DNA from: Escherichia coli
Lineage (GTDB): Bacteria > Pseudomonadota > Gammaproteobacteria > Enterobacterales > Enterobacteriaceae
Reading direction: 5' to 3' (one strand)
Assembly (NCBI RefSeq): GCF_013315695.1
Contig: NZ_CP054357.1
DNA: 5,716 nt
Part shown: positions 1 through 5,716 of the stretch, piece by piece
How the letters are laid out: each line of letters begins with the position of its first letter
How positions within the stretch are numbered: the stretch's first letter is position 1
Made by a program: the position numbers and the translations under genes
Notes under the pieces: generated by a model
The model's database searches: none
Seen by the model: only the letters and a program-made list of their open reading frames with translations
Told to the model about the DNA's origin: nothing

Positions 1-423
1 ACTATCGTCATGGCAATATCTCTTTTCGCGTTATCCTCAACATCCAGCACAGAACAACATTTTCACATTATAAAAATATTCGGTGGAGGCTATTTAATAT
101 ACATAGGATTAATGGGTTTAATTAATAAAAAAAACAAACAAAGAAAAGAGCAAAAACCTTTTTTGATACCATTATTAAACCCCAAGGCGTATCTTTTCTT
201 TGCTGCGTTAATACCAACCTTTATAGATAATAATACAAATATCACATTAAACTTTTTTATATTGGGTGTTTTATTTATATTTATATCATTCCTAACAGAT
301 CTTATTTACATAGCTATTAGCTTAACGATAAGGGATAAATTGACGCCATCATTCTCAAGATACATAAGCATATGTAGTTCCATTTTTATATTAGGTACAG
401 GTATTTATTTTATTTTTACGTGA
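1..423 (+). CDS. LysE/RhtB-family exporter, C-terminal ~140 codons; the frame is open from base 1, so the 5' end lies outside the linear window (it continues from 5567..5716 if the molecule is circular)
   Basis: The frame is open from position 1 (ACT ATC GTC ATG..), so the ATG at 10 is internal. The translation is highly hydrophobic with several predicted TM segments and the motif NPKAYLFFAALIPTFI, matching the conserved NPK..FL.ALFPQF region of RhtB/LysE-type translocators as I recall it. Stop TGA at 421-423. AT-rich codon usage. Confidence 0.75.
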   Translation, partial: TIVMAISLFALSSTSSTEQHFHIIKIFGGGYLIYIGLMGLINKKNKQRKEQKPFLIPLLNPKAYLFFAALIPTFIDNNTNITLNFFILGVLFIFISFLTDLIYIAISLTIRDKLTPSFSRYISICSSIFILGTGIYFIFT

Positions 424-480: not shown

Positions 481-1197
481 CTATTTCAGTATGGCATATT
501 TTTTATTTGGTGATTGTTCATTAAAATAATATCCGCTTTCGTCATCAACTAACACGCATGCTTTACGATAATCTCCACACTTCGAGAACTCGGCCAATGG
601 AGCTTTTTCTTTCCATTCTTTTAACATGGATTCATGTTTTTTCTGTTCTTCCATTAGCGAACTAATATTCATTTTGAGATATTCAGCATAGAAAACAGGA
701 GCGATCATTAGCAATAAAAATAATACAATCAACACAATTACCTTTTCGACAATCCTTGTTACTGTATACTTCTCCATTGTTTTTCTAATTATACCTGTCG
801 CAACTTCGGCCTCTCTGGTCGTCTGCTTTAATGATTCCTTTATCTCTTTACTTGTTTGCTCCTCGAAATCAACCCACTCTTTCTTTACATCATTGAGAGT
901 GAAAGATAATTTTTCGCGGAGTAATGACGTTAGTGTATCTGAGACTGATTTCTGTAATTTACAAGATGCCTCATCCATTCCTTTATTAATATAAAATTTA
1001 ACATTAGACACACTATCCCTAAAGGAATAAGAAATTCCAGAAACAACTTTACCTTCACGTTCAAGAGTACTTGTAAAGGTATTTAAGTCATTCACTCTTT
1101 CATTAAGCAGAGTAATTAGCCTGTTCATTTCTTTTATTTGTTTATCATTATACGCAACAAGAGCAGCAATTTTTCTTGAATGTTCATCCAATTGCAT
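481..1197 (-). CDS. Hypothetical membrane protein, 238 aa: N-terminal coiled-coil-like region, one TM helix, small Cys-containing C-terminal domain
   Basis: ORF with a GGAGG Shine-Dalgarno 9 nt upstream of the ATG at 1197, only 20 nt after the mobA stop. The N-terminal ~150 aa are rich in K/E/L/I with heptad-like spacing; one strongly hydrophobic segment (VIVLIVLFLLLMIAPVFYAEYL); the C-terminal ~60 aa contain CGDYRKAC. Clearly more AT-rich than adjacent mobA. I recognise no family. Confidence 0.7.
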   Translation of the reverse strand: MQLDEHSRKIAALVAYNDKQIKEMNRLITLLNERVNDLNTFTSTLEREGKVVSGISYSFRDSVSNVKFYINKGMDEASCKLQKSVSDTLTSLLREKLSFTLNDVKKEWVDFEEQTSKEIKESLKQTTREAEVATGIIRKTMEKYTVTRIVEKVIVLIVLFLLLMIAPVFYAEYLKMNISSLMEEQKKHESMLKEWKEKAPLAEFSKCGDYRKACVLVDDESGYYFNEQSPNKKYAILK

Positions 1198-1217: not shown

Positions 1218-2303
1218 TTAACGGCTCATACCATAATCACGTGAACGTGATGGTGCTGGTGAGGAATACGCACGCTGGCGCACTCTTTCTCTTTCCCTCT
1301 CCAGGTCTCTTTGCTTTTCGGCTTCAATTAGTCGTTCCTGTTGCAACTTCCGCTCCTCTTCCACCTGGAATTGCTTCATCATTGAGTCCAGCGCACCGTT
1401 AATCAATGAATTAAGCTGCATTACCTCATTGAGTTCATCAAACGAGCTTTCAACAAACGCCTTCAATTCTGCCCCAAGCTCATCCAGGCTTGGTGGTATG
1501 TTATCCCGTTCAGCTAACGCTTCCTTCAAGGTCGTTTTAAGGTCAATGATGCTGTCCCGTTCCTGCTCTGCTTCTAGCTTCTCCCGTTCCGCGTTTCTCC
1601 GTGCCAGAATTGCACAAACCTGATCAGCATTCATAACAGCAACACGAACGGGACCAAGATGAACTTCCGGTGTGCGCTTGATACCCTGTTCTTTCAGTGA
1701 ACGATGATCAACGCGCGACTGATGGCCGTGCCGCGCAAGGTGTTCATTCTGCACATCAGCCCAGTGAGAACGTAGCGCAACCAAGGCTGATTTTCGCTCT
1801 TGTGGTGTCTCACCAAAGCGTGCCTTTTTTGCACCTCCCCGCTCCGGTGATTTGCTGTTGGCACGTTTAAAAAACTGCTGCGGATCGCGTTCAATACCAT
1901 CATTAATCCGCTCGCAAAACATGATATGTGCGTGTGGTTGTTCCTTTCCGTCGATTGCACCTGGCGGATTGTGGATCGCGTACTGATAGGCATGGCGATC
2001 ACCAAGCTCCTTTTGCACGAAATCTTCAACAAGTTCTATCCGTTGTTCGCGTGTCAGTTCTCGCGGTAATGCGATCTCAATTTCACGGTATGCCGTCCCG
2101 TTTTTTCGTTCAAATTCATCTGCTGCTTTCCATAGCTCTGCGGGATTTTTCTTCGCCCATGATGGCATGTTACCGGATGACGAAAATTCCAGATCCTCCC
2201 GCGATTTGTAGTTCTTATATTCGCCGGATCTAGAAATATAATCAGCATGTTTTAAGGCTACGCCTTTTGCTCCAGTTTTAACTGTACAATGGTAGCTTGC
2301 CAT
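1218..2303 (-). CDS. mobA: MobA relaxase, MOBQ family (RSF1010 MobA-like relaxase domain only, 361 aa)
   Basis: The N-terminus MASYHCTVKTGAKG...HADYISRSGEY parallels RSF1010 MobA (MAIYHLTAKTG...KADYIQREGKY, catalytic Tyr in the ADYI motif). It also carries EIEIALPREL and the histidine motif HAHIMFCERINDGIERDPQQFFKR (RSF1010: HCHLMISERINDGIERPAAQWFKR), then VDHRSLKEQGIKRTPEVHLGP. The C-terminus is ER-rich low complexity. Comparison is from memory of the RSF1010 sequence. Confidence 0.9.
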   Translation of the reverse strand: MASYHCTVKTGAKGVALKHADYISRSGEYKNYKSREDLEFSSSGNMPSWAKKNPAELWKAADEFERKNGTAYREIEIALPRELTREQRIELVEDFVQKELGDRHAYQYAIHNPPGAIDGKEQPHAHIMFCERINDGIERDPQQFFKRANSKSPERGGAKKARFGETPQERKSALVALRSHWADVQNEHLARHGHQSRVDHRSLKEQGIKRTPEVHLGPVRVAVMNADQVCAILARRNAEREKLEAEQERDSIIDLKTTLKEALAERDNIPPSLDELGAELKAFVESSFDELNEVMQLNSLINGALDSMMKQFQVEEERKLQQERLIEAEKQRDLERERERVRQRAYSSPAPSRSRDYGMSR

Positions 2304-2387: not shown

Positions 2388-2421
2388 ATGATTTTAAGGT
2401 CTCACACGCAGGCAGACAAGG

Positions 2422-2430
2422 TGATATTAT
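2422..2430 (+). promoter_or_regulatory. Putative extended -10 element (TGaTATTAT) for the mobC transcript
   Basis: TG at 2422-2423 followed by TATTAT at 2425-2430, about 45 nt upstream of the mobC start; no good -35 hexamer is seen. Sequence-pattern inference only. Confidence 0.3.
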
Positions 2431-2474
2431 GCACAATAACAACTCACATTAACGGCAAAAGTGCAGAGGTAAGA

Positions 2475-2921
2475 ATGACAAATCGTGAAGAGTGGTTAAG
2501 TGCAAAAATTGCCTATATCAACGGACTGAAATCACCGTCAGAGCAGCAAAGATTACTTGTGTTACTGGCAGAGAAAAAAAACCGAACAACGACGGATGAA
2601 AAAACGTTGTCCGCACTGATACGGGCAGAAAAAACCGCAGAGAAAGCAGCCGCAGCAAAAGCCAGGGTAACGGCAATAATAGCGGCAGAACGGAAGGCAG
2701 CCGCAAGGGCGGAACGAAAGGCGCGGGATCATGAACTCTACAAGGCCGCAGGCCTCATGATTGTGGCAGGACTGGTGGACAGCAAAACCGGAAAACCAAA
2801 GTTTAGTGCTGCCGAACTGGTAGGCGCACTCGCAGGAATCGCAGAGCTACCGCGCAACCATCCAAAATGGCAGGAATGGGAAAAACGCGGGAAAGAGCTA
2901 CTCACCAAAGACAGTGCGTAA
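2475..2921 (+). CDS. mobC: MobC / TraD-like relaxosome accessory protein (148 aa from the ATG at 2475)
   Basis: Divergent from mobA across oriT. SD GAGGT sits 4 nt upstream of the ATG at 2475. An Ala/Lys/Arg/Glu-rich helical region (AEKAAAAKARVTAIIAAERKAAARAERKARDHE) is followed by a hydrophobic stretch (LYKAAGLMIVAGLVD), which resembles the RSF1010 MobC pattern (..ERKNETRRKVLVGAMILAKV..) from memory. The upstream in-frame ATG at 2388 lies inside the oriT palindrome and lacks a convincing SD. Confidence 0.7.
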   Translation: MTNREEWLSAKIAYINGLKSPSEQQRLLVLLAEKKNRTTTDEKTLSALIRAEKTAEKAAAAKARVTAIIAAERKAAARAERKARDHELYKAAGLMIVAGLVDSKTGKPKFSAAELVGALAGIAELPRNHPKWQEWEKRGKELLTKDSA

Positions 2922-3097: not shown

Positions 3098-3130
3098 CTG
3101 TTATCTGATAAGGCTTGTTATCTGGTCTCA
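3090..3130 (-). other. ori: ColE2-type replication origin (Rep binding and priming site) immediately 3' of rep
   Basis: The minus strand reads AAAATGAGACCAGATAACAAGCCTTATCAGATAACAGCGCCTGT, with CAGATAACA repeated. This matches my recollection of the ColE2-P9 minimal origin (TGAGACCAGATAAGCCTTATCAGATAACAGCGCC). The rep stop codon TGA (3128-3130) is the first triplet of this element. Confidence 0.7.
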
Positions 3131-4057
3131 TTTTGCGAGATCTGGATCACATTTTAGTTTTCGATAGTATGTGGCACGACTGATCCCTAACGTCACCCAC
3201 GGCTTCAGAGTTCGTGCCGATGTGGCAACGGCTACACGCTTTGATTTCTGACCTTTAATAGCCTGATTTTCTGATGAATTTGCATTACCGCCCTTACGAC
3301 CTCGAGCAGCCTGTACCGCGGAAAAGCCTTCAGGAGAGAATTTGCGGTAGGTGTATTTCGCAATACTCTTGCCAATAGCCCGACATTCAGCCGGAGAAAG
3401 CGGAACGGGAAGCGATGCGTTGTACATTTCGACACGCTGAATCACTGCATCAAGCCACGGTGAGAATGCTGGCCAGCCCTGACGAATCGCCCTGTAAGAC
3501 CATTTACGGCCCTTTTCGAACAGATACCAGTTTCGCCCCATCCCGTAATCTTTATCGACGCGACGGCGCGCTGAGGCGCTCAAATCAAGATAATCCGCCA
3601 GTTCGTCGAGGGTATAGAGTTCCCAACGCCATTCCACCACCTGCCATTCCTGGTGGAACGGATTTTTGCAGATCAGGCCGCTGTAGTTCACATCCGCGCC
3701 CAGTTTTTCACACAGCGCACGCTCAATCACGGCAGCGTATTTGAGCGCCGAAGCCGATGCATCCGGCGCGGTTCTCACCGGAAGAGTGAGCGCGTAGAGC
3801 AGATGCGCGTGCCCGTTACGTGGATTTTTTACGGTGATGTTCGGGGCCGGACAGTTCCGGTCGCTCCAGTCGATCGCTGCCCCCGTCCGGTCAACGTCAA
3901 AGGCCAGCCAGTGCTGCGCATGTGGCTGGTTCTGCTGGATGAAACGGGCAAGGATGGCGATATCTTTCGGTAGAATGCGAACGCCGTACGTGAAATCGTT
4001 CGTACAGTACGGTTTGTGCGGTAATTTTTCCCTGAAGAGTTGAAGTACGGCGCTCAT
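3128..4057 (-). CDS. rep: ColE2/ColE3-family replication initiator Rep (plasmid-specific primase), 309 aa
   Basis: Translation MSAVLQLFREKLPHKPYCTNDFTYGVRILPKDIAILARFIQQNQPHAQHWLAFDVDRTGAAIDWSDRNCPAPNITVKNPRNGHAHLLYAL... is near-identical over long stretches to ColE2-P9 Rep as I remember it. GGAGG sits 12 nt upstream of the ATG, and the cognate ori-like sequence lies directly downstream. Confidence 0.9.
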   Translation of the reverse strand: MSAVLQLFREKLPHKPYCTNDFTYGVRILPKDIAILARFIQQNQPHAQHWLAFDVDRTGAAIDWSDRNCPAPNITVKNPRNGHAHLLYALTLPVRTAPDASASALKYAAVIERALCEKLGADVNYSGLICKNPFHQEWQVVEWRWELYTLDELADYLDLSASARRRVDKDYGMGRNWYLFEKGRKWSYRAIRQGWPAFSPWLDAVIQRVEMYNASLPVPLSPAECRAIGKSIAKYTYRKFSPEGFSAVQAARGRKGGNANSSENQAIKGQKSKRVAVATSARTLKPWVTLGISRATYYRKLKCDPDLAK

Positions 4058-4155
4058 GTGTTAGGATTTCCTCCGTGTGTTACGACCCACACGCCCCTTG
4101 AATTTTCGTGACAGTCTTGGCGGATCGGCACGAATTTCAGGGGCGTTTGTTTTTC
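4040..4155 (+). ncRNA. Candidate antisense RNA I (copy-number control RNA complementary to the rep mRNA leader); boundaries approximate
   Basis: Plus-strand promoter-like elements TTGAAG (4040-4045), 16-nt spacer, TAGGAT (4062-4067), overlapping the rep start codon. A long imperfect hairpin plus T-run ends at about 4155. ColE2 replicons are known to use an antisense RNA of about 115 nt against the rep leader. With this promoter the transcript would be about 80 nt, so the true 5' end is uncertain. Confidence 0.45.
4094..4155 (+). terminator. Rho-independent terminator-like hairpin plus T-run (3' end of candidate RNA I; same structure in complement forms the rep leader stem-loop)
   Basis: Left arm CCCCTTGAATTTTCGTG (4094-4110), right arm CACGAATTTCAGGGG (4129-4143), imperfect with one or two bulges and an 18-nt loop, followed by CGTTTGTTTTTC (4144-4155). 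Confidence 0.5.
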
Positions 4156-4356: not shown

Positions 4357-4481
4357 CAAAAGCGATTAATGATCGGTTTCACCCCTTCAGAAGCGCGAAC
4401 TGGTCAAAACAGCAAACTTTCTCATCCAGAAAGCCAGCTGAACTAACCCGCATGAAAACAAATTTCCAAACATATCCAGTC

Positions 4482-4508
4482 TGGACAACGAAATATCGAC
4501 AATATAAA
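4482..4508 (+). promoter_or_regulatory. Putative sigma70 promoter for the cargo operon (-35 TGGACA, 15-nt spacer, -10 TATAAA)
   Basis: TGGACA at 4482-4487 and TATAAA at 4503-4508, about 100 nt upstream of the ATG at 4610. The spacer is short; pattern-based only. Confidence 0.3.
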
Positions 4509-4609
4509 ACATCATAATCGTGTTTATGGCGTGTAAAAAAGCTTACAAGAGAATTAGCATTGAAGAGTCATAACAACAAATTCCAAAAATCAAACCAGAG
4601 GATAGGAAA

Positions 4610-5560
4610 ATGAATAATTTTATAAATGAATGTATTTCCGCTCCGAGAATAAACGGCATGGCAGAATTTTTCTCATCAACTGCATCAGGGGAAAAACACA
4701 AACCTTTTAGACTAGTAGAAATAGATGATCGGCTTTTTCATTCTTATGATTACATTAAGTTTGCCAAACACCTCACAAAAAACAGCGGCCCTTTCGTTAA
4801 TCATTATTTTTGCAGTATACCATACAGCAAGGAAGAAGAGTGCAGATTAGGAACAACAGTAATAAAATACGCAATCACGCTAAACAAAAAATTAAACACA
4901 TGGTGTCTTGGTATGGCTGAGGGCGCAATGGCAAGAACCATTTCAGAATTATCAAAAGGAAACATACAAACATTAACAACCAGTCCAACAAAAGAAAATG
5001 AACATGCATTTTTTAAGTATAGCTCAAGTGAAAACGCTTATTTTATTTGCACTCCATTTTTCCTGTTAGAGGAAAGACTAAAAAATTCAAATCTTAAACA
5101 ATTTAATCAAGGATTCGATATTATAATAGAAGACACCACATTTCAAATGTACTCACCTAACAGATCTGGGCAAATAAACCACGTAAAAAGGCTATTAAAT
5201 AATGATGGTATTTTCATATTTACAGAAAAACATAGTTCAGAACATGATGAATATCAAAAAAGAGAAATCCAAAAAGATTATTCATTCAAACAAAGGTATT
5301 TCTCGAAAGATGAGATTAACACCAAAAAGGAAATCGTACTAAACACAATGAATTTGAATGAAGTTAGTGTTGACGATATGCTTTCCGCAATTAAACAACA
5401 TTTTAAATACGCATCAATATATTGGAATAGCGGAAATTTTTACTCAATCGCCGCCAGCAATTCACTAAAACACATATCAACATTTATAAATTTATTACCG
5501 AAAGCTGCAATTCCTATGGAATATGTATATGAAAAGCTCCCACGAAATATATCATGGTAA
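4610..5560 (+). CDS. Hypothetical protein, 316 aa; possible class I SAM-dependent methyltransferase-like Rossmann core (tentative)
   Basis: SD AGAGGA 7 nt upstream of the ATG; AT-rich. The central region has MTase-like motif spacing: LGMAEGAMARTI (glycine-rich, motif I-like), then about 65 aa later FDIIIEDTTF (motif II-like), then VKRLLNNDGIFIFTE (motif III-like). No canonical GxGxG and no (D/N/S)PP(Y/F) DNA-MTase motif. Stop TAA at 5558-5560. Confidence 0.75.
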   Translation: MNNFINECISAPRINGMAEFFSSTASGEKHKPFRLVEIDDRLFHSYDYIKFAKHLTKNSGPFVNHYFCSIPYSKEEECRLGTTVIKYAITLNKKLNTWCLGMAEGAMARTISELSKGNIQTLTTSPTKENEHAFFKYSSSENAYFICTPFFLLEERLKNSNLKQFNQGFDIIIEDTTFQMYSPNRSGQINHVKRLLNNDGIFIFTEKHSSEHDEYQKREIQKDYSFKQRYFSKDEINTKKEIVLNTMNLNEVSVDDMLSAIKQHFKYASIYWNSGNFYSIAASNSLKHISTFINLLPKAAIPMEYVYEKLPRNISW

Positions 5561-5566
5561 GTAAAC

Positions 5567-5716
5567 ATGGAATATTCAACATTATTATCATTTGCTATCG
5601 TAACCTTATCGCAAACTATATCAATAGGGCCTGGCGTTGCATTGGTTATAAACAATGCCTTTTCACATGGATTAAAGTCATCAATAAAAACAAGTATATA
5701 CATAAGAATTGGCGAG
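5567..5716 (+). CDS. LysE/RhtB-family exporter, N-terminal 50 codons; 3' end runs off the window (continues at 1..423 if circular)
   Basis: ATG at 5567, 6 nt after the stop of the 316-aa gene. MEYSTLLSFAIVTLSQTISIGPGVALVINNAFSHGLKSSIKTSIYIRIGE has the hydrophobic N-terminus and S-x-GPG motif typical of LysE/RhtB translocators (RhtB: ..[20 protein letters not shown]..). There is no stop before the window end, and the window ends exactly on a codon boundary. Confidence 0.75.
   Translation, partial: MEYSTLLSFAIVTLSQTISIGPGVALVINNAFSHGLKSSIKTSIYIRIGE

Follow-up and report, generated by a model that had tools for sequence, protein, structure and literature searches.

A candidate make-and-export cassette, made up of a CmoA-related enzyme and a LysE-family exporter, in the colicin slot of a small Escherichia coli plasmid

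The plasmid and its AT-rich cargo

The stretch of Escherichia coli DNA analysed here (the window, 5716 bp) matches, over 100% of its length and with 100% identity, several complete circular plasmids of 5716 bp, among others NZ_CP082933.1 from Salmonella London and CP056318.1 and NZ_CP124378.1 from E. coli. Genes can therefore legitimately be read across the circular junction. The plasmid is of the ColE2/Col156 type and was typed MOBQ, in agreement with the initial annotation, which regarded it as a small mobilizable plasmid. Its features are given in Table 1.

Table 1. Genes and other features of the plasmid, in window coordinates
Feature	Position	Strand	Remarks
Enzyme gene, 316 aa	4610..5560	+	ORF; ends TGG TAA
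LysE/RhtB-type exporter gene, first 50 codons	5567..5716	+	Runs on across the circular junction
LysE gene, other 140 codons and stop	1..423	+	190 aa in total; about 5-6 hydrophobic segments
Untranslated region upstream of the operon	4400..4609	+	GAGGATAGG ribosome-binding stretch just 5' of the ATG
CAATATA microhomology	4500..4506 (left copy); 5416-5422 (right copy)		Flanks a 920-bp deletion
Orphan 238-aa membrane protein gene	481..1197	-	Convergent on the operon; 33% GC, like the cargo
MobA/MobL (MOBQ) relaxase gene, 361 aa	1218..2303	-	Backbone; cargo block starts just past its 3' end
ColE2-type replication initiator (rep) gene, 309 aa	3128..4057	-	Backbone; cargo block stops upstream of its 5' end

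The block that separates the relaxase gene from the rep gene has a GC content of 32.3%, against 50.2% for the backbone, and is best explained as a horizontally acquired cargo. The spacer between the stop codon of the enzyme gene and the ATG of the LysE gene is 6 nt long (GTAAAC). As anticipated in the initial annotation, the two parts of the LysE gene form one unbroken frame, and this 573-nt gene is annotated in NZ_CP082933.1 as an intact "LysE family translocator"; the enzyme is annotated as "hypothetical" in the identical 5716-bp plasmids. The same annotation had described an AT-rich two-gene operon. Its base composition and the tight pairing of the two genes stand, but the AT-rich cargo comprises three genes, not two.

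The third one encodes a 238-aa protein whose N-terminal part is helical and which has a single hydrophobic segment (residues ~144-176); it belongs to no Pfam, PHROG or NCBIfam family. A search of 5.8 billion proteins recovers as relatives only copies sharing at least 88% identity. The gene occurs in 32 plasmid records, all from this plasmid lineage and only on plasmids that carry the block. It is not a general accessory gene of MOBQ plasmids, being absent from about 1150 other plasmids with the shared backbone.

Comparison with a plasmid lineage sharing 93% identity gives dN/dS values of 0.098 for the enzyme, 0.19 for LysE and 0.23 for the 238-aa protein, i.e., all three cargo genes are under strong purifying selection. 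Because of these low values, and of full-length homologues of the enzyme in other genera (E ~1e-100), the enzyme and LysE genes are not chance ORFs. Scanning the region upstream of the operon for promoter and terminator consensus sequences gave no more sites than in shuffled sequence, and no promoter was therefore assigned. Likewise, Rfam reveals no riboswitch or leader 5' of the operon, its sole match (PK-repBA, positions 4095-4143, E = 0.95) being insignificant.

Various derivatives of the plasmid have lost part of the cargo. Recombination between the two CAATATA copies leads to the 920-bp deletion, which removes codons 1-271 of the enzyme gene and leaves LysE intact; the resulting LysE-only derivatives retain the upstream stretch up to position 4506. 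A LysE-only plasmid occurring in nature measures 4959 bp. One deletion derivative is typed Col156. Derivatives that have lost the enzyme and kept LysE persist in several hosts, a suggestive pattern, as it is the one expected if the exporter alone protects. In other derivatives, the operon is disrupted by a transposon insertion. The intact operon was found in 19 of 5426 complete E. coli genomes. Given this rarity and these losses, any benefit that it provides must be conditional.

The initial annotation knew of no described plasmid system with this architecture. This still holds, since the literature on LysE and small plasmids, on Col156/ColE2 with LysE and a methyltransferase, and on p838C-R1 yielded no paper describing the cargo. 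A different, 4.3-kb ColE2-like plasmid is mentioned, without this cargo (PMC3251573).

The exporter and the enzyme

The LysE protein matches Pfam PF01810 (E = 9e-20), its residues 17-188 covering positions 4-190 of the 193 of the model, and the LysE/RhtB assignment made from the sequence is thus sound. Kyte-Doolittle analysis places hydrophobic segments at residues 9-28, 43-62, 73-91, 128-161 (with room for two) and 171-190. In NCBIfam, it best matches efflux proteins for homoserine/threonine, leucine and homoserine lactone: TIGR00949 ("homoserine/threonine efflux transporter") comes first with 64.1 bits for a cut-off of 183.95, LeuE scores 52 for 165 and RhtB 45 for 209. As it remains below every curated cut-off, the plasmid LysE is not an orthologue of any characterised exporter. 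It is best explained as an amino-acid-type exporter, whose predicted substrates would be amino-acid-like.

The AlphaFold2 model of the enzyme (pLDDT 93.4, pTM 0.92) has a class I methyltransferase fold, Rossmann-like alpha/beta with the seven-stranded sheet. Foldseek and hhalign agree with it, which bears out the S-adenosylmethionine (SAM)-methyltransferase-like core that had been tentatively proposed for the 316-aa protein. Among solved structures, the best matches are YecO/CmoA (E ~2e-9); 438 structures match at E <= 1e-3, and the best 50 of these 438 are all methyltransferase-fold proteins. In the same way, the best AFDB matches outside its own family are CmoA proteins. Alignment by hhalign with CmoA of E. 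coli, over residues 95-284, gives a probability of 88% (E = 2.9e-6), and a sequence search of the PDB retrieves only CmoA/YecO (E = 1e-3 to 2e-2). Searches of Pfam, NCBIfam, PHROGs and PADLOC assign the enzyme to no named family above cut-off: Pfam gives a marginal match to Methyltransf_31 (E = 1.6e-3), PADLOC a weak one to mad2 (E = 3.2e-3), PHROGs a match to the CmoA-like PHROG 4752 (E = 7e-11), and the NCBIfam CmoA model (TIGR00740) scores 26.1 bits for a cut-off of 193.3, covering only residues 172-282. The enzyme has no hydrophobic segment, which indicates a cytoplasmic protein. It belongs to a distinct family, sister to CmoA, that has no entry in Pfam or NCBIfam.

The putative SAM site of this family departs from the canonical one. 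In the hhalign alignment, motif I after strand 1 is degenerate, LGMAEG facing LGCSLG of CmoA. Most members of the family keep the glycines G101 and G105, and the acid that should precede them is a Cys in the enzyme and an Asp in 39 of 39 giant phage-type proteins (see below). The ribose-binding acid at the end of strand 2, Asp89 in CmoA, faces Thr123 of the enzyme. In the family-wide alignment, column 125 holds an Asp in 35 of the 39 giant proteins and a Ser in 51 of 65 stand-alone proteins, i.e., the canonical acid is replaced by Thr/Ser in the branch of the enzyme. Because of this replacement and of the degenerate motif I, binding of SAM by the enzyme is not assured.

Arg199 of CmoA is the only residue that touches the carboxyl group of carboxy-SAM (PMC4482062). 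It aligns with position 240 of the enzyme, which is variable in the family (K, R, E, Q, A, S and others), an assignment that depends on the alignment. The invariant Lys239 is not its counterpart, since the alignments place it opposite Lys198 of CmoA. Other invariant residues are H65, E174, Q179, R185, K207, K222, K227 and N276. No CmoB, TglF or CmoX partner was found in the window or among the conserved neighbour clusters of 80 loci. As the nearest relatives, the carboxy-SAM synthases, consume SAM as a substrate and not as a methyl donor, "methyltransferase" should be taken as a fold label and not as a demonstrated activity. The "methyltransferase-like enzyme" of the initial annotation is right as a description of the fold.

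Conserved neighbourhoods and candidate functions

The enzyme family, with 602 hits, includes 288 cluster representatives at E <= 1e-30; its members are spread over Proteobacteria, Firmicutes, cyanobacteria, fungi, an alveolate and giant phage proteins. They are carried by plasmids and ICEs, and in four unrelated hosts the cassette has a higher AT content than the DNA on either side of it. A LysE gene lies directly 3' of the enzyme gene in 6 of 80 genome loci, from Enterobacterales, Rhizobiales and Streptococcus. The gap between the two genes is 8-62 bp in Pectobacterium, Phyllobacterium, Ciceribacter, a Rhizobium MAG and Streptococcus equinus, and the pair is also found in further loci of Pectobacterium, Citrobacter and Klebsiella and in a metagenome contig (four contexts). 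The co-occurrence of the two genes, which the initial annotation had put forward as a check, is thus confirmed in all these genera. Other members are associated with other transporters: an MFS transporter gene lies near the enzyme gene in 54 of 80 loci, and in Chromera velia the top AFDB match is a protein of 863 aa that bears the title EamA-domain protein and aligns with the whole enzyme model. Coupling of the enzyme to transporters of three unrelated families (LysE, MFS and EamA) is therefore well supported.

It could be argued that the enzyme and LysE are neighbouring foreign remnants with no functional link, and that the cargo is neutral or decaying. The rarity of the operon in E. coli, its deletion and transposon-disrupted derivatives and its annotation as merely hypothetical would fit with this. 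However, dN/dS values of 0.1-0.2 across lineages, the recruitment of transporters of three families and the maintenance of the pairing across phyla with LysE partners that share 23-38% identity with that of the plasmid make it extremely improbable, and we strongly disfavour it.

Besides transporters, the family is recurrently tied to adenylate-forming ligases of three kinds. A 470-aa partner is encoded in 48-50 of 80 loci, and the proteins closest to its confident model are BshC and class I aminoacyl-tRNA synthetases. Furthermore, members of the family are fused to a complete lysyl-tRNA-synthetase-like module or to an ANL adenylation module, and an AMP-ligase-like gene, assigned from the reading of its sequence, lies near the cassette of S. 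equinus. In Burkholderia, the neighbours were read by eye as amino-acid metabolism genes. The recurrent tie to ligases would favour production of a compound over detoxification.

A detoxification module, in which the enzyme would methylate an incoming toxic compound (amino-acid analogue, plant or gut metabolite, metalloid) and the exporter would remove the product, nevertheless deserves consideration. Besides the methyltransferase fold and the carriage by plasmids and ICEs, it would account for the divergent AraC-family regulator found in 55 of 80 loci: such a gene beside an efflux-type MFS gene is a common layout for inducible resistance, and the rhizobial AraC protein could be the toxin sensor. 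However, the nearest relatives are SAM-converting synthases and not small-molecule methyltransferases, and Pfam reveals no likeness to TehB, TPMT or ArsM above background. In addition, such a role fits poorly with the recurrence of ATP-dependent ligases as partners and, in two cases, as fusions, and the LysE-only derivatives persist without the enzyme. Detoxification thus seems rather unlikely. The divergent AraC layout of rhizobia is typically seen in inducible operons for uptake or catabolism as well, and MFS transporters can import, an observation that does not fit easily with a make-and-export function.

The reading that we prefer, with a probability of about 0.45, is that of a make-and-export cassette whose product, secreted for competition or signalling, would derive from SAM and resemble an amino acid. 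What we infer as to SAM use, product, transport direction and ecological role is as follows. The two co-oriented and nearly abutting genes would constitute the cassette. The cytoplasmic enzyme would bind SAM and use it, with or without a common co-substrate, to make a small, polar metabolite resembling an amino acid. This product would then be pumped out by the LysE/RhtB-type protein, so that the compound is released and the producer is spared its accumulation. In relatives that possess an adenylate-forming ligase, the same product could be carried one step further to an amide-linked compound; since the E. coli plasmid has no ligase, the free compound would be released. The likely benefit for the plasmid would be a secreted competitive or signalling molecule, the small-molecule counterpart of the colicin that it replaced.

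The full enzyme domain is also found inside giant phage proteins; these have matches to large PHROG families and one marginal match to a polyvalent-protein ART. Both their sequences and these PHROG matches identify them as phage proteins, which rules out that they are PKS/NRPS megasynthases. Secretion of a product makes little sense in this context, which does not sit well with a make-and-export role of the domain.

The phage copies raise the alternative that the enzyme destroys or converts host SAM, as phage SAM lyases do, thereby blunting SAM-dependent restriction or BREX during the establishment of mobile elements, the exporter disposing of a toxic by-product such as homoserine lactone. SAM depletion has been raised as an open possibility for a phage CmoA (PMC12783734). 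The presence of the rhizobial enzyme gene among conjugation genes and the homoserine/homoserine-lactone exporter RhtB among the relatives of LysE would agree with this role. However, the fungal members and the EamA-titled protein of Chromera have no restriction to evade, the ligase partners are left unexplained and a constant loss of SAM due to a multicopy plasmid would be costly. Furthermore, the phage branch keeps the canonical SAM-binding acids and the plasmid branch does not, so that the two branches may differ in their chemistry. We therefore regard SAM depletion by the plasmid enzyme as very unlikely.

In rhizobia, the enzyme gene is usually found beside the divergent AraC regulator gene and often a short distance 5' of a gene for a conjugation activator. 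It precedes a co-oriented traR by 108-181 bp in four loci (L028, L029, L070 and L081); NCBIfam confirms TraR in L029 and L070 (407 and 257 bits), and the genes of L028 and L081 belong to the same BLAST cluster. In eight loci, it lies about 220 bp upstream of a gene encoding a conjugation regulator of the SMa0974 family (RctB-type) and, in four, about 200 bp 3' of a divergent gene of the LuxR type. The signal that activates the RctA/RctB circuit has yet to be identified (PMC13274422), and the product could be a diffusible signal that the transporter releases and that the adjacent AraC or LuxR-type regulator reads to control conjugation. However, no such regulator is found on the E. coli plasmid or beside the cassettes examined in Pectobacterium, Citrobacter, Klebsiella and Streptococcus, the window holds no receptor candidate, and the adjacency may reflect a common insertion region near transfer genes. 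A role as signal synthase thus appears quite improbable.

The location of the cargo on the plasmid provides a last clue. It sits between the 3' end of the relaxase gene and the 5' end of the rep gene, i.e., in the slot occupied in pO26-S4 by the colicin E2, immunity and lysis genes; the published description of MOBQ4 plasmids (PMC6856555) also served for this comparison. A more specific proposal, which we hold to be unlikely, is that the enzyme is no methyltransferase but a new SAM-converting synthase that would yield in one step a free non-proteinogenic amino acid or a homoserine-lactone-type product. This antimetabolite would be a small-molecule "colicin" replacing the colicin operon, with LysE ensuring immunity as well as export. 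Plasmids reduced by deletion to LysE would in that case confer immunity without production, and the ligase partners (tailoring), the rhizobial regulators and the phage copies (SAM consumption) could be explained as well. The "type A" microcins are low-molecular-weight compounds antagonised by methionine, which reports from the early 1980s described as encoded on small multicopy E. coli plasmids. To our knowledge, those such as microcin 15m have never been cloned, and a cassette of this kind would be a candidate for them; a literature search on microcin 15m/A15/93m found nothing.

Should the cassette indeed make a SAM-derived metabolite and export it, it would define a new enzyme family and would show that plasmids of the colicin type can exchange a protein toxin for a trait based on a small molecule. 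It would also give a handle on the compound, the enzyme gene of rhizobia lying beside conjugation activators with an unidentified inducing signal. The two-gene cassette would be simple to test and easy to clone, and clinical as well as environmental E. coli and Salmonella already carry it. If it is a resistance pair or a neutral passenger, its value would be modest and mainly at the level of annotation.

Comparison with known systems

The initial annotation compared the pair with TehA/TehB, in which the gene of a transporter-like membrane protein also lies beside the gene of a SAM-dependent methyltransferase-fold protein. The analogy is limited to this layout, as the enzyme has no TehB match in Pfam and the transporter is a LysE protein. 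TehA belongs to a different transporter family. Both the ligase associations and the kinship with CmoA point elsewhere.

As for the exporter, it shares with the members of the LysE/RhtB superfamily (LysE, RhtB, RhtC, LeuE and EamB) the PF01810 domain over its whole length, a size of ~190-210 aa and 5-6 hydrophobic segments.

The AZE synthases AzeJ/VioH and nicotianamine synthase, which represent SAM cyclases and ACP-transferases, are enzymes of class I methyltransferase fold that convert SAM into non-proteinogenic amino acids (PMC10491745). No sequence or fold match to them appears among the best 50 of the 438 solved-structure matches; as a functional speculation, and not as a homology, products of this class would suit LysE or EamA exporters and downstream adenylating enzymes.

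The enzyme shares with CmoA/YecO (PDB 4GEK, 4IWN, 1IM8) the class I methyltransferase fold, the strand-4 motif xxTxQ (EDTTFQM in the enzyme, LNFTLQF in CmoA) and the lid helix (D-F/S-K ... K). However, the two proteins have only 12-20% identity, and the enzyme possesses about 90 additional N-terminal residues that include invariant residues of their own. The CmoA homologues TglE and MccS act in small-molecule pathways, those of 3-thiaglutamate and of the Bacillus microcin C (PMC10491745). The partner of the enzyme is an exporter and not a carboxymethyl transferase of the CmoB/TglF type.

Lastly, the plasmid shares its type of backbone, with a ColE2-like Rep and a MOBQ relaxase accompanied by a divergent accessory gene, with the ColE2/Col156-type MOBQ4 plasmids ColE9-J and pO26-S4, although its relaxase is shorter (361 aa against 516 aa in a relative from Shigella sonnei). 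In place of the colicin, immunity and lysis genes of these plasmids, the slot holds here the genes of the enzyme, the exporter and the orphan membrane protein.

Plasmid backbone and cargo block

The window is a complete circular plasmid of 5716 bases; its PLSDB record gives the type as mobilizable and the relaxase as MOBQ. It is identical (100% identity over 100% of its length) to a 5716-bp plasmid of Salmonella enterica serovar London (NZ_CP082933.1) and to other 5716-bp plasmids from E. coli of human, river and freshwater origin. The GC content, about 50% in the backbone, falls to 32% from around position 4400 through the circular junction to around 1200. The initial annotation had described an AT-rich cargo of two genes; the AT richness and the gene pair were both found again, but the block comprises three genes, since it includes a 238-aa ORF. 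The predicted coordinates of the pair proved exact: the 316-aa ORF (the enzyme) ends with TGG TAA and is separated by the spacer GTAAAC (6 nt) from the ATG of the second ORF, whose frame crosses the junction without interruption and is annotated in NZ_CP082933.1 as an intact 573-nt LysE gene.

Gene content of the 5716-base plasmid
Feature	Position	Strand	Region
238-aa ORF	481-1197	-	cargo block
MobA/MobL relaxase gene	1218-2303	-	backbone
TraD-like accessory gene, divergent	2388-2921	+	backbone
ColE2-type rep gene	3128-4057	-	backbone
316-aa ORF (enzyme)	4610-5560	+	cargo block
190-aa ORF (LysE)	5567-5716 then 1-423	+	cargo block, across circular junction

The three cargo ORFs are real genes: compared with a 5728-bp sister lineage (~93% nucleotide identity), they show dN/dS values of 0.098 (enzyme), 0.19 (LysE) and 0.23 (238-aa gene). 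A colicin-immunity-lysis operon is the normal cargo of MOBQ4 plasmids that have ColE2-like initiators (PlasmidFinder type Col156; PMC6856555). pO26-S4 has this operon between its relaxase gene and rep, an interval occupied here by the AT-rich block. The relaxase has 361 aa, that of its closest relatives among Col156 plasmids 516 aa (S. sonnei NZ_CP110401.1, locus L098), and the DNA similarity to these relatives ends about 365 nt before the 3' end of its gene (1218-1582), so that its C-terminal ~120 aa, adjoining the cargo boundary, appear to be of a different sequence.

The 238-aa gene is confined to this plasmid lineage (32 PLSDB records versus ~1180 with shared backbone sequence), and a search of 5.8 billion proteins found no relatives of its product below 88% identity. 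This gene (33% GC, under purifying selection) has the orientation of mobA and rep, as expected of a colicin gene; its product has a helical N-terminal part, a single hydrophobic segment (~144-176) and a short Cys-containing tail.

The intact operon is carried by 25 PLSDB plasmids; of 5426 complete E. coli genomes, 19 have it, always plasmid-borne; some copies lie within cointegrates of 82-186 kb. Several other plasmids (4959-5237 bp, from pigs and humans in the UK and elsewhere) lack enzyme codons 1-271 and retain the 238-aa gene, the upstream region and an intact LysE, following a 920-bp deletion between CAATATA repeats at 4500-4506 and 5416-5422 (e.g., CP057837.1, locus L015). They could be "immune non-producers" or result from simple decay. 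In p838C-R1 (NC_019062.1, locus L097), a Tn21-like resistance transposon inserted in the cargo truncates LysE. This 30-kb multiresistance plasmid consists of the 5.7-kb plasmid and a transposon with mer, a class 1 integron (aadA1, sul1) and blaTEM-1 on Tn3; in it, a cryptic small plasmid has come to act as a platform for resistance genes.

The enzyme family and the exporter

The initial annotation had tentatively attributed a SAM-methyltransferase-like core to the enzyme. Matches in profile libraries are no more than marginal: Pfam Methyltransf_31 (1.6e-3), the NCBIfam model of the carboxy-SAM synthase CmoA (26 bits, cut-off 193) and a PHROG labelled phage "tRNA methyltransferase" (7e-11). Structure prediction bears out the attribution: an AlphaFold2 model derived from 56 homologues reaches high confidence (pLDDT 93.4, pTM 0.92), and Foldseek retrieves methyltransferase-fold proteins from the PDB, the first six being YecO/CmoA chains (E ~2e-9 to 1e-8, 12-15% identity); next come the C-methyltransferase/cyclopropanase pair CysG/BelI, then BpumL. 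The enzyme profile matches the E. coli CmoA sequence over residues 95-284 with 88% probability. Both families share a lid helix and a strand-4 motif (EDTTFQM in the enzyme, LNFTLQF in CmoA), and the degenerate motif I of the enzyme, LGMAEG, aligns at equal spacing with LGCSLG of CmoA. The ribose-binding Asp89 of CmoA is replaced by Thr. Arg199, the only CmoA residue that contacts the carboxyl of carboxy-SAM (PMC4482062), lies opposite a variable position of the enzyme family. The enzyme thus has a CmoA-like fold but does not qualify as a CmoA by score or by these residues.

With a word-indexed search, 184 relatives were retrieved. Identity is about 55% for those of Citrobacter, Pectobacterium and Klebsiella and 43-50% for those of Rhizobium, Agrobacterium, Mesorhizobium and Sinorhizobium; their labels read "hypothetical" or "class I SAM-dependent methyltransferase". 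A profile run exhaustively against 1.84 billion cluster representatives gave 602 matches at E <= 1e-3, including 288 at E <= 1e-30, and the family is absent from curated family libraries. Predicted structures (AFDB) with a TM-score >0.9 come from Streptococcus, cyanobacteria, Thiothrix, an actinomycete, Burkholderia, Penicillium and Chromera velia, while the match to a shorter protein from Aspergillus covers the fold in part; the nearest neighbours outside the family are carboxy-SAM synthases. Among 112 full-length domains, H65, P71, E75, D170, E174, F178, Q179, R185, E206, K207, E219, K222, K227, K239, W272, N276 and F277 are invariant or nearly so. Fungal members, from Penicillium canescens, P. 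arizonense and Aspergillus ruber (A0AAD6HYI9, A0A1F5LT47, A0A017S0C1; 41-44% identity), suggest transfer between bacteria and fungi, or contamination.

The assignment of the 190-aa protein to LysE/RhtB-type exporters holds: it matches nearly the whole Pfam LysE model (PF01810, E = 9e-20), and its five hydrophobic stretches include one that could span two helices. Its best NCBIfam matches (homoserine/threonine efflux subfamily, LeuE, homoserine/homoserine-lactone exporter RhtB) all score well under the curated cut-offs, so that it is a member of the superfamily but an orthologue of no characterised exporter.

Conserved partners and proposed function

Co-occurrence of the two genes, expected if they form a module, is found in several other genera. 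The enzyme gene adjoins a LysE gene on the Pectobacterium brasiliense chromosome (between an ABC transporter operon and gcvTHP), beside mobilisation genes in Citrobacter werkmanii, within an ICE in Klebsiella michiganensis and alongside an integrase on a metagenome contig. With one genome retained per species (80 loci), the enzyme gene is followed at a distance of 8-62 bp by LysE in six loci, from two Pectobacterium, Phyllobacterium, a Rhizobium MAG, Ciceribacter and Streptococcus equinus. These partner LysE proteins are merely 23-38% identical to that of the window, which indicates that the pairs are old. The cassette is also AT-richer than its flanks in Pectobacterium (32.5% vs 54% GC), Phyllobacterium, Ciceribacter and the window, which marks it as a horizontally moving unit. 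Functional coupling of enzyme and exporter is quite probable, and their adjacency without any coupling is very improbable.

Unbiased clustering of every neighbouring ORF in the 80 loci showed that the commonest neighbour is a divergent AraC-family regulator (55 loci), followed by an MFS transporter (54), a 470-aa protein of unrecognised family (48) and a LysR regulator (24). In rhizobial loci (L019-L096), the 470-aa BshC-like ligase, MFS and AraC genes share one strand, divergent from the enzyme gene. The Chromera velia AFDB match (A0A0G4HCU9, 863 aa, whole-model TM-score 0.97) is entitled EamA-domain protein; if this is correct, the protein joins the enzyme domain to a transporter of a third family, although the equal-length representative P0286 has no family in the NCBIfam scan.

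Neither Pfam nor NCBIfam has a family for the 470-aa partner of the rhizobia; its confident model (pLDDT 91) best matches the bacillithiol ligase BshC (E = 1.5e-5), then class I aminoacyl-tRNA synthetases. In two family representatives, the enzyme domain is fused to a complete lysyl-tRNA-synthetase-like module (P0260) or to an ANL-type adenylation module (P0303). Genes assigned by eye from their sequences follow the cassette in S. equinus (resembling an AMP-forming ligase) and in Burkholderia humptydooensis (ornithine-cyclodeaminase-like and threonine-aldolase-like). The recurrence of carboxylate-activating partners points to an amino-acid-type biosynthetic chemistry more than to detoxification, a reading that is rather unlikely. 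The best-supported reading, to which we give a probability of about 45%, is a make-and-export cassette: the enzyme would use SAM to make a small polar, amino-acid-like product, which the LysE protein would expel. That the enzyme instead depletes SAM, the exporter removing a by-product, seems improbable.

A signal linked to the control of conjugation would fit the position of the rhizobial enzyme gene just upstream of traR or of a regulator of the SMa0974 family, and is about as improbable as SAM depletion. The SMa0974-family (RctB-type) gene lies ~220 bp after the enzyme gene in eight rhizobial loci and traR follows it in four (L028, L029, L070, L081; NCBIfam confirms L029 and L070). Four others (L090, L093, L094, L096) have a divergent LuxR-type gene before it, whose product in L093 has, by eye, Trp57/Tyr61/Asp70/Pro71-type ligand residues. 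Directly upstream of the cassette in the K. michiganensis ICE (L102, 1-4600) lies a gene for AfsA (gamma-butyrolactone synthase-type), with genes for an acyl carrier protein, a ketosynthase and an aldo-keto reductase and an unassigned 306-aa gene co-oriented with the enzyme; this group may be a separate signalling-molecule cluster.

Phage copies and comparison with known systems

The full enzyme domain also occurs within proteins of 2000-5000 aa (P0331, P0336, P0339 and ~40 others). Their sequences rule out megasynthases. Their PHROG matches are very large families without assigned function; in one of the proteins, a "polyvalent protein" ADP-ribosyltransferase domain is matched marginally (E = 1.2e-3). 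They fit the multi-domain proteins that phages and conjugative elements inject (PMC5512222). This branch keeps the canonical SAM-binding acids, Asp before motif I (39/39) and Asp at the end of strand 2 (35/39), which the plasmid branch lacks; at the second position, most stand-alone members have Ser or Thr. By eye, P0336 contains a GGDEF-like stretch, RLGGEEFAII.

The plasmid was already in databases, with the enzyme unannotated, and the literature search found no publication on the cassette, in agreement with the initial annotation, which knew of no described plasmid system of this architecture. As a lead, the cassette is solid and testable; how important it is will depend on its chemistry. 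The methyltransferase fold, the LysE exporter and the ColE2-type plasmid are of known kinds, while three things appear to be undescribed: the family of the enzyme, the systematic way in which it is paired with exporters and ligases, and its occurrence in the colicin slot.
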